This document shows positions 3,744-31,515 of a DNA stretch of 64,000 nt, piece after piece. Positions within the stretch are counted from its first letter, which is position 1. Each line of letters begins with the position of its first letter. The notes under the pieces are model-generated. The model was not told where the DNA came from. It saw only the letters and a program-made list of their open reading frames with translations, and did not search any database. The position numbers were made by a program, and so were the translations under genes. The DNA comes from an uncultured Candidatus Saccharibacteria bacterium (GTDB lineage: Bacteria; Patescibacteriota; CPR2; UBA1875; CAIMLA01), in the NCBI GenBank assembly GCA_964501135.1, contig CAZCRI010000005.1, positions 14,771 to 78,770 on the forward strand, written 5' to 3'.

Positions 3744-4394
3744 CTACAAGCCCAGTGCCTCTTTCGCCGCCACGGTTGCTTTCTGCAACCTTGGCGTCTT
3801 GTTGTAGTCGAGTAGGGTGACTCCCACCACGTTCTCTGGAATCCCACATGCGGCTTGCGCCGCCAAGACTCGTGCTGACAGCCCCCCGTCGGGAAGCCAC
3901 ACTAGTCCCGCAAGATGCGCGTAAGGGCTTCCATTCGATGGACCGAACTGTACCAGTCCCCGAATCTCCACGTTCGCTACGCCGTTGTCGTAGTAGTAAC
4001 GACCGCCCACTACTGTCAACGGCAGCAGAGTGTGCGCAAAAGCACGAAGTTCCTCGGGTATCTCTCTGCCCACAATGGTAGGTACTGTCTGAAACTTGCG
4101 AAAGTGCTCCGCACCAGAGAAGTGCAGGATCACGCTAGCAAGGTCCACCTTGCCGGTCGTCTGCTTTGCAGTCTCTGCAATCTCCTCGATAGGACGCAGC
4201 TCACGAACCGGAAGCTCGGCCTCTTTCTCGGTAAGACATCTTCCGAATGGCCCGAGAGCGTCGACAAAGTCCTCTGATGTGTTGCACTTCAGATACTCTG
4301 CCGCCTTCACCATCACGATGTTATCGGTACCGCCGCAGGTAGGAAGCAGATGGACGAGTCCATATCTGCCACCCTTGGTTATTTCCAGGTTCAT
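3744..4394 (-). CDS. hypothetical protein immediately downstream of hypC (position where hypD is usually found, but lacks HypD CGxH/GPGCPVC/CPVC motifs)
   Basis: 216-aa ORF, 12-nt gap after hypC, ~58% GC; sequence MNLEITKGGRYGLVHLLPTCGGTDN...; no diagnostic motif. Confidence 0.45.
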   Translation of the reverse strand: MNLEITKGGRYGLVHLLPTCGGTDNIVMVKAAEYLKCNTSEDFVDALGPFGRCLTEKEAELPVRELRPIEEIAETAKQTTGKVDLASVILHFSGAEHFRKFQTVPTIVGREIPEELRAFAHTLLPLTVVGGRYYYDNGVANVEIRGLVQFGPSNGSPYAHLAGLVWLPDGGLSARVLAAQAACGIPENVVGVTLLDYNKTPRLQKATVAAKEALGL

Positions 4395-6728: not shown

Positions 6729-7336
6729 CGTACCACTACAGCTTTCACTGCCCCTTTCGGGTTTGTAATCTGGACTATCCCTTCTTCCACGTGGGAAGTC
6801 TGCCAACTAGTCTCTACACCTTCCCCGACGATGCTGTCGGGACTTGGCTCGGGATTGCCATGACGTTTTCACGCTTTAGGTTTCCCCGAATTTGACAGAA
6901 TATACTAATGGATCGCTCCACTAGCAGCCCTTTGACTACTTGGCCTATCTAGAGTATTATCGGATTATGAAGGACTTCATAAACTGCAAGGTCTGCGGCA
7001 AACAACTATCGGGACGCCAACTGATGTTCTGTTCTGGCAAGTGCAAGAACAAAGTACATCAGTCTTATGGTGCCCAAAAGGAACGCGCCCTAGAGAGAAA
7101 GCTTTACTTTATCCGTTTGCTCGGCGGCAAATGCCAGGAGTGCGGATATAGCGAGAACCTAGCAGCCCTTTCCTTCCACCACAAAAGCGGTAAGGAATAT
7201 AAGCTGGATTCAAGATCGCTTTCCAATAGGGGTTTGCAGACAATGAGAGATGAAGTTGCCAAATGCGAGCTGCTTTGTGGCAACTGTCACATGAGACTTC
7301 ATAACCCTTCTCTGGACTTAGCCAAATTGTCAATTG
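6729..7336 (-). mobile_element. Group I self-splicing intron (608 nt) inserted between U33 and C34 of tRNA-Ile(CAU); core P3-P9 in 6729..~6900, long P1/P2 extension 6901..7336
   Basis: Intron RNA (minus strand) shows P3 UGUCAA/UUGGCA, P4 AAAUUCGGGGAAA / AAUCCCGAGCC (P/Q elements), P6 CCCGAC..GUCGGG, P7 GAGACUA / GGAUAGUCC (R/S elements), P8 CUUCC-cacgu-GGAAG, P9 CCC-gaaa-GGG. The 5' exon ends in U and the intron ends in G (GGUACG|CAUAA). Confidence 0.8.
6940..7336 (+). CDS. HNH endonuclease domain ORF (homing-endonuclease-like) encoded antisense within the intron P1/P2 extension; reads through in frame into tilS with no stop codon
   Basis: CKVCGK...FCSGKC zinc ribbon, then GGKCQECGYSENLAALSFHHKSGKEYKLDSRSL...CELLCGNCHMRLHN (CxxC...HH...N...CxxCH HNH signature). 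The ORF continues across the antisense tRNA exon 1. Confidence 0.6.
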
Positions 7337-14000: not shown

Positions 14001-14600
14001 TCACTGCCCCTGGCGCTGCTGATGTCTCCAAGAAAACAGCGCATGTGAGAGTCGGTAGGTGTTGTAGCCGTTGTCGAAGCGAACTCCCAGCTTCTTCATG
14101 ATGCCATCGATCGCTTCGCGCTTCGATGCGTCGCAGGACCGCAGGAAGTTTCTCCCGAGGCTGCCGTAACCGCCACCAGCTGGCCAGCTGGTGGCTTCTG
14201 TACACTCCAGGAGCAAATCAAACTCGCTGGGTGTGAGCTTAACTACCTCCTCACGGAGTAGCTCACCAGGACGCGTCGTCCCGTTCTCCTCCTTGGTCAT
14301 CCGGGTGCGCCAGGCCTGAGCTGACTCCAGGCTCTGCATGGTGGTGGTCACAGACCCCCGATTGCCTTCCTCCTGGACCAGGCGCGGGTGGCGCACGATC
14401 AACATATCGCAGTCATCCGAGTCGTACTCAAAGACCCCGGCCTGAACAAGCTTGCGAAGTAGAGTCGAACGGAGAGACCCCGAAACCGAGACCTTGCTTA
14501 GTCGCTCACCCGTGCGGTACTTGGCCTTGTTCCTCACCCAGAGTTCGAACTCATCGGAGGTAAGGTAGACCGGACCGAGCTCCTTCTGCCCCGTAGGCAT
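14001..14600 (-). CDS. hypothetical protein (199 aa) in ~58% GC island
   Basis: Clean ORF, compositionally distinct from flanks; no motif recognised. Confidence 0.4.
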   Translation of the reverse strand: MPTGQKELGPVYLTSDEFELWVRNKAKYRTGERLSKVSVSGSLRSTLLRKLVQAGVFEYDSDDCDMLIVRHPRLVQEEGNRGSVTTTMQSLESAQAWRTRMTKEENGTTRPGELLREEVVKLTPSEFDLLLECTEATSWPAGGGYGSLGRNFLRSCDASKREAIDGIMKKLGVRFDNGYNTYRLSHALFSWRHQQRQGQ

Positions 14601-15262: not shown

Positions 15263-15784
15263 ATGGAAATCACACTAGATATTGCGCTGCTCTGCTTCAT
15301 CCTTTCTCTCAGGTACGGGGTAGTCCCGACCGAAGACATTCCGGAGGAGTGCGAGTACGAGATCTACTTGATTGCCCGCGAACATGCACTAACAACCAAG
15401 AACTACGAGTTCGCACTCCACCTCTCCGATAGCAGAGAGCGCTCACGTTGGATCAAGGAAACCAACAGCGAGAAACTCATGGCTATCTGGGAAGCTCTAG
15501 GCTGGGTTGAAGTCGGCTATCACAGCCCCTTCTGGTCCGGCAAGAAGCGCTATGTATTGCCGCGTCGCTACCGGTCCTATCCTCCTTGCGAAAAGAGGGA
15601 GATGGATCCCAGAGAGCTGGACCAGCGTCTTGAGCAAGCCCGGGAGAGTCTCGAAAAAGGCTCCCGGATCACCTTCTCCGGAGGCTGCTCACGTGAATCT
15701 GCTTGGAGACTCCACGAGGCGGGCATCGTCTCGCATGACCCACCAAGACAACCGAACATGATCCTTCGCGCACCATACCGCTAG
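15263..15784 (+). CDS. hypothetical protein (from MEITLD...; six-frame ORF starts at 15206) in GC-rich segment
   Basis: ORF only; Cys/Arg-rich; no motif recognised. Confidence 0.35.
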   Translation: MEITLDIALLCFILSLRYGVVPTEDIPEECEYEIYLIAREHALTTKNYEFALHLSDSRERSRWIKETNSEKLMAIWEALGWVEVGYHSPFWSGKKRYVLPRRYRSYPPCEKREMDPRELDQRLEQARESLEKGSRITFSGGCSRESAWRLHEAGIVSHDPPRQPNMILRAPYR

Positions 15785-21420: not shown

Positions 21421-21440
21421 TAGTATGGTACAATACATTT

Positions 21441-21713
21441 ATGGCAAAATCAGAAAAACAATTAGAAAGATATTTTAAAGGGGTTGCTAATCACCACCGT
21501 ATACTTATCTTAAGAACGATTGCAAAGAATGAAAACATTACTTTACAGGGGATAACAGAGATTACTAAACTAGAATTCAAGAATGCTTCTGCTCATACCG
21601 CGAAACTCGTTGCGGCTGGCCTGGTTAATAAAAGATATATGAGTAATTTTGTTGTCCATACCTTGTCTCCCTATGGCAAAAGTATGATAGACGTGCTCGA
21701 CCTCTTTAAATAG
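21441..21713 (+). CDS. ArsR/SmtB-family HTH transcriptional regulator
   Basis: 90 aa; ANHHRILILRTIAKNENITLQGITEITKLEFKNASAHTAKLVAAGLV matches the ArsR wHTH core. Confidence 0.7.
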   Translation: MAKSEKQLERYFKGVANHHRILILRTIAKNENITLQGITEITKLEFKNASAHTAKLVAAGLVNKRYMSNFVVHTLSPYGKSMIDVLDLFK

Positions 21714-28806: not shown

Positions 28807-28881
28807 TCCCGGGTAGCTCAGTGGTAGAGCAGTTGGCTGTTAACCAATTGGTCGTCGGTTCGAATCCGACCCCGGGAGCCA
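28807..28881 (+). tRNA. tRNA-Asn(GUU)
   Basis: TCCCGGG-TA-GCTC-AGTGGTA-GAGC-A-GTTGG-CTGTTAA-CCAAT-TGGTC-GTCGG-TTCGAAT-CCGAC-CCCGGGA-G-CCA; anticodon GTT; CCA encoded. Confidence 0.9.
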
Positions 28882-28894
28882 AATAGATATATCA

Positions 28895-28926
28895 AAAGAA
28901 GCCTCTAAGGAGGCTTCTTTTATTTA
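28895..28926. terminator. Bidirectional rho-independent terminator shared by tRNA-Asn (+) and the convergent beta-helix membrane protein gene (-)
   Basis: aagaagcctc-taag-gaggcttctt hairpin flanked by A-run upstream and TTTTATTT downstream. Confidence 0.75.
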
Positions 28927-28938
28927 ATCAAAGTCTAT

Positions 28939-30063
28939 TTACGCTTGTTGAGCCTTCAGATAGCCGAAGCCCATTTGAGTTAAAGCCCCAAATACTGTCC
29001 AGCCGACAACTAGGCCAAATACTCCACCGACAAATGGGATTACCGATACTAGAACGTAGAGAACTACGCCCAGTGATGCCGTCTTCCAATTCACCGTGAG
29101 CATCTCTTCTTTACGAAGGTATTTCCAAGCAAACGAACCGACTAGAAGCGCGGAAAGTGTACCGGTGAAGGCAAAAAATGCTAGATAAGCAAGGAATACG
29201 TACCAGAGGACTCCCCAGCCAACAAAAGTAATCAGGAGCAAGAGAAGGGCAAATGGGGTCACAACAATAGCTACAAATCCAACCCAGAAATTTCTGAGTG
29301 GTTTTACCATTGCGGCTTCCAAGACCTGTGCCGAAAACTTCGGAAGCAACTTGATGAATACTAGCAAGGAAATCAGGCCCATCAAAATACTGATTACAAT
29401 TCCACCAGCTCTATCGGCTACGGTCTGTCCCGCTGAATTCATGGTAGAAACTTTAGTAAACTCGGTTTTGCCAACTTTAGCGCCTGAAGCTATCGTAGCT
29501 TCCTGCTCGGCACTATACTTCAGCTTTCCCTCGATAACGGCGGCGGCATCAAGTTTGACTTCACCAGCGTTATACAACTCAACATCGCCAGCAGTCTTGC
29601 CGGAAATCGTTACCGTCCCGCCACTACTGCTCTTGACTGATCCCGAGATAGTGCCGCGCATATTTACCGTGCCGCCAAAGACAATCACATCTCCCGCAAC
29701 TACAGATTTGGTGCCAAGTGTAACCTCTCCGCCAAAGACAACAACGTCACCGCCAACCGTACCGTCCAAGGTAACAGTACCACCAGCAACTCGCAAGTTC
29801 CCCCCAGTAGCGCCAAACACATTCAAGGTTCCACCAGCTGCCAAGATGCTGTCCTCAACATCTCCATTTACGGTTACGGTTCCACCGGCAACGGCGAGGT
29901 CACCCAAGACATTCGCATCTACTGTTGGGTTCTCGCCCGCGAGGTAGAGATTCTTGGTTTTAGTTTCTTTAGATATCACCTCAGCAGACCGAAGGTCAGC
30001 TGCAAATGAGAAGACTGGGAAAACGACTACCAAAGCCGCTACAAGCCATAACATATTTTTCAT
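28939..30063 (-). CDS. secreted/membrane protein: signal peptide, N-terminal Gly/Val-rich beta-helix repeat domain (bactofilin/DUF4097-like), C-terminal 4-5 TM helices
   Basis: MKNMLWLVAALVVVFPVFSFA signal; repeats GDVxDSILAAGGTLNVFG / GGNLRVAGGTVTLDGTVGGDVVVFGGEVTL...; hydrophobic C-terminal third. Confidence 0.5.
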   Translation of the reverse strand: MKNMLWLVAALVVVFPVFSFAADLRSAEVISKETKTKNLYLAGENPTVDANVLGDLAVAGGTVTVNGDVEDSILAAGGTLNVFGATGGNLRVAGGTVTLDGTVGGDVVVFGGEVTLGTKSVVAGDVIVFGGTVNMRGTISGSVKSSSGGTVTISGKTAGDVELYNAGEVKLDAAAVIEGKLKYSAEQEATIASGAKVGKTEFTKVSTMNSAGQTVADRAGGIVISILMGLISLLVFIKLLPKFSAQVLEAAMVKPLRNFWVGFVAIVVTPFALLLLLITFVGWGVLWYVFLAYLAFFAFTGTLSALLVGSFAWKYLRKEEMLTVNWKTASLGVVLYVLVSVIPFVGGVFGLVVGWTVFGALTQMGFGYLKAQQA

Positions 30064-30153
30064 AATTCCCCTTACTATTAACTGATACTAATTATAATAC
30101 AACTGCAAAGAGAAAAAAGGATATTCTGTCGCTATCGAAATCGAAGGATAGTT

Positions 30154-30190
30154 ATTGACGATTTGCCATATTTGTTATAATATACCCTGT
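30154..30190 (+). promoter_or_regulatory. Candidate sigma70-type promoter for the 3-gene GC-rich cassette
   Basis: TTGACG -17 nt- TAATAT (tataat overlapping) upstream of 30243. Confidence 0.35.
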
Positions 30191-30242
30191 TCGTCCAATC
30201 AGAGAGATTTCCGAGTGAAATCTGAGAGGGGAAGGAAAGCAC

Positions 30243-30476
30243 ATGGGAGAGAAGAAGAGGAAGCAGCGCAATCGCAAGCCCGCAGAGGCACCTGCTGGAG
30301 CAACTCAGAAGAAGGTCTTCCGACTGCTCTGTGGGGTACTGCTTGCGGCACTTGCCGGATACATCGGCTTCGTAGCCGTGGCCTACGCACTGCGTAACTA
30401 CAGTGTCGTCGAAGACGCCACCGGCAAGGCCCGCGTCCTGCCGACGGCATCCGCCCTCGCCACCGAGACCAAGTAA
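30243..30476 (+). CDS. hypothetical small membrane-anchored protein (77 aa), GC-rich
   Basis: Lys/Arg-rich N-terminus then one TM helix; ~62% GC. Confidence 0.4.
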   Translation: MGEKKRKQRNRKPAEAPAGATQKKVFRLLCGVLLAALAGYIGFVAVAYALRNYSVVEDATGKARVLPTASALATETK

Positions 30477-30487
30477 GGGGGTTCAAG

Positions 30488-30820
30488 ATGCCCGGCCCGC
30501 TGCTTTGCGGCTTCATGAAGCCGCATCCATACGTTGCCTGCCGTGCTGCTGACCTCGCCGGTGAAGACCCTATCGATGTCATCGTGCGTGCTCGTCTGGC
30601 GGTTGCTACACTCTCCAGCTACCAAGTAATCGAGGCGCCCCTGTCACCGCTCTACGCCAAGATGTGGCAGCACGTCTTGATCGTGCGCAACAAGAACACC
30701 GGCGCCAAGCTGGCGCTATGTACCGACAACGGCGAAAGCTACTTCGCGCTCACAACTCAAGGCATGCGCAACGAGGAAGCTACCATGATTCTGAACACCC
30801 TCGTTGCCGACGACTTCTGA
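30488..30820 (+). CDS. hypothetical protein (110 aa), GC-rich
   Basis: ORF 12 nt after previous gene; no motif recognised. Confidence 0.4.
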   Translation: MPGPLLCGFMKPHPYVACRAADLAGEDPIDVIVRARLAVATLSSYQVIEAPLSPLYAKMWQHVLIVRNKNTGAKLALCTDNGESYFALTTQGMRNEEATMILNTLVADDF

Positions 30821-30844
30821 GTCAACGCCACGAGAGGAGGCAAG

Positions 30845-31210
30845 GTGTTCAATTCAGTGAAAGAGTATCCACGTATCGTTCACCTCTTCAGCGCCACCCG
30901 AGAGGAAGTCGAGAAGATCGAGCCGTTCCTCGCTCCGTACCACGCCTCGAAGGGCCCCGAGAAATACTATCCGAGCCTGGACGACCACGACAAGATTCTT
31001 GCAAACAACGGTTGGATGCTCGGAGGTCCCTTCCACGAGGAGAGGATTGACGGTGAGAGCTACAAGGCCGTCTACGTCGCGGTCAACCGATCCTCGGCAG
31101 TAGTCGTAATCGCTGCATTCGTCGAGCAGCGTACTGAAGCCAAGTTCTACGTTGGGAAGGTCAATCGGGAATATGCATCCCAGCTGGAATATGCCCTTCC
31201 CACCAACTAG
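30845..31210 (+). CDS. hypothetical protein (121 aa), GC-rich
   Basis: GTG start preceded by AGGAGG RBS; no motif recognised. Confidence 0.4.
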   Translation: MFNSVKEYPRIVHLFSATREEVEKIEPFLAPYHASKGPEKYYPSLDDHDKILANNGWMLGGPFHEERIDGESYKAVYVAVNRSSAVVVIAAFVEQRTEAKFYVGKVNREYASQLEYALPTN

Positions 31211-31231
31211 CACACATGTCGTGTGCACCTG

Positions 31232-31275
31232 CCCCGCCTGCATACAGCAACGTCCCGTTGCTCTTGCGAGCGGGG
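31232..31275 (+). terminator. Compound GC-rich hairpin after the 3-gene cassette
   Basis: ccccgc...(inner hairpin agcaacg-tcc-cgttgct)...gcgggg followed by a T-rich tract. Confidence 0.4.
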
Positions 31276-31515
31276 CGTTGTCATTTATGTTCTCTTTTGA
31301 CATGCTTCGAAAGAAGTCGAGGTGCATTACTTCTTCGATACCTTTCTCTTGAAAGAAAGGTACCCTAAAGTTCAAGAAAAATCGAACTCCTTCGACTCTG
31401 TACGAAATTTTGCTAAAGCAATAATTTCTAGCATTCGTCGATAGTCGGGGCTGCGAACCCGAGCGATTTTTAAAGGGCTCAGAACGGTATTTTGCAGGTC
31501 ACGGAAGAGAAGATA

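Follow-up and report, generated by a model that had tools for sequence, protein, structure and literature searches.

The window analyzed here is a 64,000-nt stretch of contig CAZCRI010000005.1 (assembly GCA_964501135.1) from an uncultured Candidatus Saccharibacteria bacterium, and at 30150-31300 it contains a GC-rich unit of three small genes that is an accessory operon specific to a subclade of the Patescibacteria and convergent to yidD-rnpA-rpmH. Comparison of sequences from several genomes shows that this unit has an inherited and conserved expression frame, which consists of a strong-looking promoter, a leader of ~60 nt, the junction of the tail of the first open reading frame (ORF1) with its stop codon and the following Shine-Dalgarno site, and a terminator of two hairpins. 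According to the same comparison, the coding content within the frame is GC-rich in every lineage examined and changes, by evolution or replacement, at a far higher rate than the genome around it. We consider it probable that the unit as a whole, in both its anatomy and its evolution, is best described as a chromosomal accessory operon with a conserved frame and fast-changing, GC-rich content. A preliminary description of the window had presented the three genes as a self-contained cassette of orphan small proteins, and had suggested that they form a mobile island beside a tRNA gene. Our analyses support a transcription unit that is self-contained, encodes orphan proteins and looks foreign in composition, and the suggestion of an island is taken up below.

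The conserved expression frame

The comparison drew on genomes of the subclade (four) and of a sister clade (three), and the corresponding loci are referred to by L numbers. The three co-directional genes of 77, 110 and 121 aa that had been proposed were confirmed on the + strand as ORF1 (30243-30476, ATG start), ORF2 (30488-30820, ATG start) and ORF3 (30845-31210, GTG start), and the products of ORF2 and ORF3 are soluble and mildly acidic. The 24 nt that had been reported as the upper limit of the gene spacings is the distance between ORF2 and ORF3, but ORF1 and ORF2 are 11 nt apart rather than 12. All three Shine-Dalgarno sites are purine-rich: GGGGAAGGA for ORF1, GGGGG for ORF2 and, as previously noted, AGGAGG for ORF3, 6 nt 5' of the GTG. 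The promoter claimed upstream was also recovered, as a consensus scan placed a sigma-70-type promoter, TTGACG-N17-TAATAT, at 30155-30183 on the + strand, which can alternatively be parsed as TTGACG-N15-TATAAT with a TGn extension. TTGAC and the TGnTATAATAT block are kept in L002, L024, L027, L011 and L015 (alignments A8 and A1). The 5' leader that follows (30184-30242) contains a CCTGTTCGT block at 30186-30194 and a purine-rich Shine-Dalgarno region, GAGAGGGGAAGGAA, at 30224-30237, and these blocks are kept in six genomes (alignment A8). A riboswitch or other structured element in the leader was rejected, based on insignificant folding (z = -0.16 and -0.7) and no match in Rfam.

The compound GC hairpin described downstream of the genes was verified and resolved into two parts. 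Hairpin 1 (31210-31226, GCACAC...GUGUGC) begins at the ORF3 stop codon and is kept in four genomes with one compensatory pair (alignment A7), and hairpin 2 (31230-31300) is formed by a long nested stem (31230-31277) followed by a U-rich tail, with an invariant stem base, GCCCCGC/GCGGGGC. The two hairpins together have a folding energy of -39.8 kcal/mol (z = -5.1), and none of 200 shuffled sequences was equally stable. The terminator is 88% identical to that of L002, with a 30-nt block that is identical and an apical stem that is compensatory, and 93% identical to that of L027. In the consensus fold 4 of the 21 pairs are changed on both sides, and these compensatory changes preserve the fold.

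Gene content of the same locus in related genomes

The contrast between a constant frame and an inconstant interior is seen in L002 (Patescibacteria metagenome-assembled genome JTS-AC303), which was found through a GTDB scan with the DUF8173 protein encoded next to the unit. Its flanking proteins are 82-100% identical to those of the window and its YidD is 72% identical. The sequence (L002rc) and the window are collinear as far as the start codon of ORF1 and then again from the stop codon of ORF3, whereas the interiors, 630 bp in L002 versus 961 bp in the window, are unalignable. No tblastn match to ORF1-3 was found in L002. Its interior is equally GC-rich and contains two genes, one for a diverged ORF1 (63 aa) and one for a 144-aa protein that has no similarity to ORF2 or ORF3 beyond one 17-residue local match to ORF2 (pairwise E = 0.038). 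The two genomes have the promoter, leader block and Shine-Dalgarno region in common, and they also share the terminator and the end of ORF1, including its K-stop-GGGGG junction.

In L024 (GCA_964511435.1) the promoter and leader are followed by ORF1 (63 aa, tail ...KVLPTMSAAPTPKKK), a 151-aa protein, a homologue of ORF3 and a terminator of the same family, and downstream of the cassette lie yidD, rnpA and the genes for a DHH protein, an NTP-transferase and a GT4 glycosyltransferase. L026/L027, from metagenomes of the Joint Genome Institute (JGI), have the same gene order and are fully syntenic between the ATP synthase genes and the DHH gene. There, ORF1 (3822-3960) is a frameshifted pseudogene that has lost most of its hydrophobic helix and whose start codon is out of frame with the tail (ARSVPSMSSVATPTK*); the remnant is identical in the two samples, and the two genes downstream are intact. 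The framework is convergent to yidD-rnpA-rpmH in all three of these other genomes (L002, L024 and L026/L027), the constant anchor being the yidD-rnpA side. On the other flank the window and L002 have DUF8173, L024 has a lipase-like gene and L027 has a 358-aa orphan. The difference in rate of change is evident from RnpA, which is 82-90% identical to its counterparts in L024 and L027, versus 33-38% for ORF3.

Protein families of the unit

The first protein had been described as basic with a single transmembrane segment, and we obtained the same result: ORF1 has an isoelectric point (pI) of 10.2, a long basic N-terminus and one strong hydrophobic helix at approximately residues 28-46 (Kyte-Doolittle 19-residue maximum of 2.43). 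The tail that follows (...KARVLPTASALATETK) is rich in Thr, Ser and Ala. The protein resembles a signal anchor or a signal peptide, and it matches the lipoprotein-signal model TIGR03726 at a sub-threshold level (E = 7e-4). We define here an ORF1 family by position as first gene, a single helix and a conserved tail, all of which the window ORF1 has. In this family the N-terminus and helix are variable, while the last ~15 residues are conserved across clades (alignment A4), with a tail consensus of approximately [KR]-V-x-P-[ST]-x-S-A-x-x-T-x-[TK]-K, followed by the stop codon and a G-rich Shine-Dalgarno site. The motif VLPT[AM]SA is common to ORF1 of the window and of L024, and the L024 protein was the top outside match of an ORF1 profile built without it (E = 0.009).

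Given this arrangement, in which the only residues conserved across clades end 8-11 nt before the next start codon and the K-stop-GGGGG junction is kept, we considered whether ORF1 could be a regulatory or communication peptide, either an arrest peptide like SecM or MifM or an exported precursor like Phr or AimP. The N-terminal signal or transmembrane segment and the possible AxA-type cleavage sites after the helix would suit such a function, and in the Phr/AimP-like variant the variable C-terminal pentapeptide (ATETK, TTDTK, TTATK or ATPTK) could be the signal. However, we regard this as very unlikely, since the downstream genes encode neither Sec/YidC components nor tetratricopeptide repeat (TPR) receptors, there is no RRNPP-type protein, and ORF1 is a pseudogene in L027 while the genes after it persist.

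The second gene of the unit in several relatives encodes members of what we define as family B, which are 142-151 aa in length and have the motifs (P)DG-Y-Y, G-[IL]A and FY. The signal of this family is weak; leave-one-out profiles recovered the members from L002, L024, L011 and L015 (E = 5e-5 to 4e-4), and did not recover ORF2 or the 144-aa protein of L027. ORF2 was tested as a diverged member of family B and rejected, based on an hhalign comparison with the family (E = 0.72) and negative jackhmmer and leave-one-out searches, and the six-frame translation of the window contains no frame-shifted family B remnant. ORF2 is a singleton, and the slot that it occupies is filled by family B in the relatives. 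As family B can be recognized between distant genomes and in the closer L002, yet is missing from the window, ORF2 most likely arrived by replacement rather than by gradual divergence.

The last gene encodes family C, comprising ORF3 and the proteins P0124 and P0125 (121-123 aa; motifs NGW[MLV]LGGPF, NR and F[YH]...V; alignment A6). These homologues were identified by an exhaustive phmmer search of 1.84 billion representatives (P0124: 122 aa, 38% identity, E = 7.6e-17; P0125: 123 aa, 34%, E = 2e-13), and they are encoded in the same slot of L024 and L026/L027. A third match, P0126, was discarded as a low-complexity tandem-repeat artefact. A word-indexed search of 5.8 billion clusters had returned only ORF2 and ORF3 themselves. 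The orphan status originally given to these proteins is retained for ORF2 but only in part for ORF3, whose two homologues both occupy the same slot. Families B and C may be distant paralogues, an unproven lead suggested by a comparison of the five-member family B profile with the ORF3 family profile (hhalign E = 0.052; E = 0.48 for a three-member family B profile against ORF3 alone). It is likely that the ancestral order of the operon was ORF1, family B and family C, and the changes observed by lineage are ORF2 in place of family B in the window, a missing family C in L002 and the ORF1 pseudogene in L027.

Modular arrays in a sister clade

Homologues of the DUF8173 protein at 52-58% identity led to the long contigs L011, L013 and L015 of the sister clade. 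This clade has a variable slot convergent to DUF8173, in which L016 and L021 carry nothing and L011, L013 and L015 carry from one to three tandem modules, with a GC content of 0.53-0.57 versus 0.43-0.48. The first module opens with an ORF1-family peptide of 49-62 aa, and the promoter, leader and Shine-Dalgarno motifs of this module can be aligned to their counterparts in the window. The peptide is followed by family B (L011 and L015) or by a 171-aa protein (L013), for which a match to phrog_1229 (E = 1e-15) and homologues in 67 phage records were found. Each module closes with the same nested-hairpin terminator of ~50 nt, present in two or three identical or near-identical copies of ~40-50 nt per array (L011 7278-7325 and 8395-8464; L015 7282-7324, 8360-8400 and 9731-9800), and no copy was found outside the variable slot in the 13-kb loci. 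The cargo proteins are mutually unrelated. In L015 a promoter/leader unit of ~110 nt is duplicated at ~97% identity before two unrelated genes, and a homologue of it precedes a third in L011.

These arrays bear on an alternative to turnover within a frame, namely a plain structural or envelope operon, clade-specific and inherited vertically, in which GC content results from selection, for example on mRNA stability or translation, and differences from relaxed constraint, with no exchange. Supporting such an operon are the conserved position and regulatory signals, the style of the Shine-Dalgarno sites and promoter, which is native to the genome, and the retention of families B and C in several genomes each. 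Nonetheless we find it rather improbable. The relative closest to the window, L002, has a recognizable family B protein where the window has the unrelated ORF2, even though family B is still recognizable between much more distant genomes. In addition, highly expressed housekeeping genes have a GC content at third codon positions (GC3) of only ~0.45-0.51, and the sister-clade arrays place unrelated cargo behind duplicated regulatory units.

Composition and coding status

The GC content of the coding block (30243-31210) is 58.2%, and that of 30150-31300 is 56.5%, compared to a window mean of 44.5%. The cassette had been put at ~62% GC; that it is GC-rich holds, but the figure itself is reached only by ORF1 (61.5%) and by single 200-nt windows (63-64.5%). 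Its composition had also been called the most extreme in the window, and the unit is indeed the GC maximum among all stretches of ~1 kb (z ~3.3). A codon-usage analysis agreed, with GC3 at 0.70-0.72 for ORF1-3 versus 0.46±0.07 for the 57 other ORFs of the window, and in all genomes examined the cassette genes have a GC3 of 0.66-0.80, versus 0.35-0.48 for the flanking genes. The codon-position periodicity of the genes (GC1>GC2<GC3) was matched by none of 20,000 shuffles for ORF2 and for ORF3, and by 249 of 20,000 for ORF1, and because of this periodicity we conclude that ORF1-3 are coding and that the long minus-strand ORFs are their shadows.

GC-rich islands often mark structured RNAs in AT-rich genomes, and this, along with the long shadow ORFs, might suggest that the unit is a non-coding structured RNA or, failing that, an assembly chimera or contaminant. 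We give either possibility almost no credence. In addition to the strong three-base periodicity, ORF3 is conserved at the protein level, and a search of 30150-31300 against Rfam returned nothing at E <=1 other than a chance snoRNA fragment (E = 0.32). With regard to an assembly artefact, this can be discounted because the Logan contig L001 (run ERR3839025), an independent assembly, is 100% identical to window 28856-31037, and because the junctions of the unit recur in three other genomes. The L001 contig begins inside tRNA-Asn and ends inside ORF3 at 31037, and these end points could mark branching of the assembly graph caused by co-existing strain variants; the same run also contains a related organism with a different cassette (L024/L025).

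Other GC-rich orphan genes occur in the window at 14001-14600 (- strand), 15264-15784 (+ strand) and 3744-4394 (- strand), with GC3 values of 0.72, 0.65 and 0.62, respectively, and no Pfam or NCBIfam match for any of the three. The first two are stand-alone units amid housekeeping genes (lepA, hemerythrin, VanW), each with a GGGGA Shine-Dalgarno site and a hairpin terminator. Promoter-like sites were seen for both, TTGACG-N17-TATAAT for 14001-14600 and one with a weaker TGGTACAAT -10 element for 15264-15784, the latter gene being missing from the corresponding place in L024. Such GC-rich orphan units appear to be a genome-wide class in this genome.

Evidence regarding a tRNA-linked island

The suggestion that the cassette is a recently acquired mobile island, brought in by site-specific integration at tRNA-Asn, draws support from its orphan proteins, a GC3 of 0.70-0.72 against 0.46, and the tRNA gene (28807-28881) 1.3 kb away, and gene content does vary among close relatives. 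However, the cassette does not adjoin the tRNA gene as had been implied. The two are separated by the DUF8173 gene (28939-30063, - strand), which encodes a 374-aa membrane protein that is weakly bactofilin-like, has Pfam matches and is 86% identical in L002; this gene is divergent from the unit and flanks it without being part of it. The wider flanks consist of the ATP synthase operon and DUF8173 on one side and, on the other, yidD, rnpA, rpmH, a DHH phosphoesterase gene (DHH/DHHA2), an NTP-transferase gene and a GT4 glycosyltransferase gene. No integrase, transposase or recombinase gene was found in these flanks and no recombinase domain in ORF1-3. A search for 25-nt and 16-nt segments of the tRNA-Asn 3' end, the repeat that integration there might have left, found them within the window only in the tRNA itself at <=3 mismatches, and no direct repeats bracketing the cassette were found.

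The presence of the locus in relatives was equally informative. None of the close relatives has an empty site, as L002, L024 and L026/L027 all carry the framework, equally GC-rich, at the same place, with ORF1 in the same position, and in L024 neither a tRNA gene nor DUF8173 is adjacent. Based on these observations, which include both of the findings that the preliminary description had itself named as grounds for refutation, the island is no longer tenable as proposed, and we judge its probability to be slight.

Searches for function and origin

No recognizable motifs had been noted in the three proteins, and likewise they have no match in Pfam, PHROGs, PADLOC, NCBIfam or the PDB. For the window proteins PADLOC-DB v2 gave nothing up to E <=1, and for 10 proteins of the relatives nothing at E <=0.1, barring a chance-level BrxC fragment, and PHROGs gave the window proteins nothing better than E = 0.16. 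Searches with tblastn of 50,697 phage records found no match to the window proteins, and IMG/VR contained no true relative, its six matches being short (18-25 residues) and due to chance. The one phage-related gene that we identified is the 171-aa cargo gene of L013. A survey of the literature on GC-rich or hypervariable loci in the Patescibacteria, also known as the Candidate Phyla Radiation (CPR), and on DUF8173 found nothing relevant. Single-sequence AlphaFold2 (AF2) models reached a predicted local distance difference test (pLDDT) value of 62.6 and a predicted template modelling (pTM) score of 0.56 for ORF2, and a pLDDT of 55 for ORF3.

A toxin-antitoxin, abortive-infection or other anti-phage module, changing rapidly in an arms race, can be envisaged in which ORF1 is the membrane effector and ORF2 and ORF3 are soluble sensor or antitoxin proteins. 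We consider such a module unlikely, as none of 13 proteins has a PADLOC, Pfam or NCBIfam match, the structural matches are all generic or below significance, and ORF1 is dispensable in L027. Specifically for a type II (RelE/ParE-like) system, we found neither a sequence match nor a confident structural match to a toxin or antitoxin superfamily, and ORF3 and its homologues are acidic (pI 5.6-6.0), unlike RelE-type toxins.

Further features of the locus

The DUF8173 protein (homologues P0005-P0023) combines a signal-like N-terminus with a repeat region that resembles bactofilin and, towards the C-terminus, several transmembrane helices. Its gene adjoins GC-rich cassettes in five of the seven genomes examined, on differing sides, and this proximity may be a functional linkage or a coincidence. 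Between the cassette terminator and the yidD stop codon is a conserved structured element of ~135 nt (31337-31471). It is 84% identical to L027 5137-5265, where it is inverted with respect to the neighboring genes, and L002 lacks it. On the + strand the element terminates in a hairpin and U-run (folding at z = -3.4 for the + strand and -4.3 for the - strand), its inner hairpin keeps its structure despite sequence change, and it has no Rfam match; we note it as a candidate small RNA or invertible/mobile mini-element. In L024 the gene-free region of ~790 bp upstream of the cassette promoter contains a perfect 31-nt inverted repeat (6808-6838 and 7169-7199), and a segment between its arms (7083-7161) is homologous, in reverse, to window 21426-21504.

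Proposed expression and evolution of the operon

For the operon with a conserved frame that we favor, we propose that one tricistronic mRNA would be made from the promoter, with each cistron translated from its own Shine-Dalgarno site. ORF1 would either insert with its N-terminus inside and C-terminus outside, according to the positive-inside rule, or be cleaved after AYA, and by either route its conserved tail of ~15 residues would be exposed or released outside the cell. ORF2 and ORF3 would be soluble cytoplasmic alpha/beta proteins, and the long conserved hairpin would terminate the transcript and probably stabilize it. Cargo could be swapped by homologous recombination across the conserved frame, with DNA uptake supplying the incoming alleles. 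A single old transfer cannot account for the GC richness, because this has outlasted divergence of housekeeping genes to ~70-85% nucleotide identity, and continued import, biased conversion or selection is needed. We speculate that the lasting GC richness has one of two sources, repeated re-seeding by an accessory gene pool that is GC-rich and in part carried by phage, or conversion biased towards GC at a hotspot of recombination. As to the role of the operon, a strongly expressed cell-surface or conflict module directed against phage or the host bacterium, under diversifying selection, is the most likely one in our view, although our confidence in it is low.

Several points weigh against this account of the operon. 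The sampling is thin, at four subclade and three sister-clade genomes, and recombination across the frame is something that we infer from the pattern of conservation; strictly, gradual hyper-divergence of ORF2 from family B might still be argued. The sister-clade cassettes are at a different place, convergent to DUF8173, and because the places differ, the case for homology of the entire unit across the clades depends on ORF1, family B and the promoter and leader motifs. The L027 pseudogene shows that the ORF1 membrane peptide is dispensable in at least one lineage. The family members of the relatives, like ORF1-3, have no Pfam, PHROG, PADLOC, NCBIfam or PDB-sequence match, and the structure models are of low to moderate confidence. 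Finally, no GC-rich donor, and no phage or plasmid carrying the frame, was found in viral, phage and plasmid collections searched with proteins, profiles and DNA patterns, and metagenome scans gave no matches to the window terminator block and only two known contigs for the sister-clade pattern.

A bolder extension, to which we assign a low probability, is that the locus is a gene-exchange slot that operates with no integrase. The fixed frame would then provide both the expression signals and the homology arms or recombination sites, such that external GC-rich genes could be swapped in, arrayed and expressed at once. The pool would be phage or a high-GC host bacterium, with the GC3 of ~0.7 as the footprint of that pool or of GC-biased conversion, and the slot would be integron-like in function by a different mechanism.

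Relation to known systems and significance

The unit shares features with several known systems. Like islands targeted to tRNA genes by tyrosine integrases, it is a compositionally deviant block of orphans within 1.3 kb of a tRNA gene that varies between relatives; unlike them, it has no integrase or att duplication, a host gene intervenes, the locus and frame are conserved, and one relative has no tRNA gene nearby. The tandem, unrelated small orphans of the sister clade, each closed by the same imperfect palindrome, and the exchangeable cargo in a conserved frame are reminiscent of integron arrays and clusters of attC sites lacking an integrase (CALINs). In contrast to these, every module has its own promoter and leader, the palindrome with its U-run resembles an intrinsic terminator, no GTTRRRY-type attC core was seen by eye, there is no IntI in the flanks, and the window holds a single module.

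The agr and comCDE/comQXP pherotype loci are hypervariable allelic loci with conserved flanks that are maintained by recombination. Similarly, the promoter and terminator flanks of our unit are kept around an interior that cannot be aligned between close relatives, and a gene for a small, putatively exported peptide is present, but there is no recognizable histidine kinase, processing enzyme or receptor family in the unit. Hotspots of defence islands and phage morons are alike in the fast turnover of small orphans at a fixed site with their own promoter and terminator, and in the phrog_1229 membership of the L013 cargo, and unlike in that the unit has no PADLOC match, no phage structural or integration genes nearby and no match to a viral contig. 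ORF1 resembles SecM, MifM and VemP in being small and N-terminally membrane-targeted with a conserved C-terminal stretch just before the next Shine-Dalgarno site, but differs in that no translocon components follow it and that it was lost in one lineage in which the downstream genes were kept. The unit extends the known theme of a hypervariable locus with conserved flanks by means of new small protein families.

The majority of CPR genes are annotated as hypothetical, and little is at hand for studying how bacteria so reduced and so dependent on a host gain and deploy accessory functions. The locus described here is a concrete and comparable unit, with a fixed place, a conserved frame, turnover of proteins between genomes whose neighboring genes encode products that are 82-100% identical, and a cassette whose GC3 exceeds that of the genome by ~25 points in all sampled lineages. 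Even if the exchange reading proves wrong, the ORF1 peptide, B and C have been newly defined as small protein families of an uncultured lineage, along with a terminator element that is conserved. If exchange mediated by the frame is true, these episymbionts would be able to sample foreign genes without classical mobile-element machinery, and the locus would lend itself to weighing gene conversion biased towards GC against import out of a GC-rich pool.

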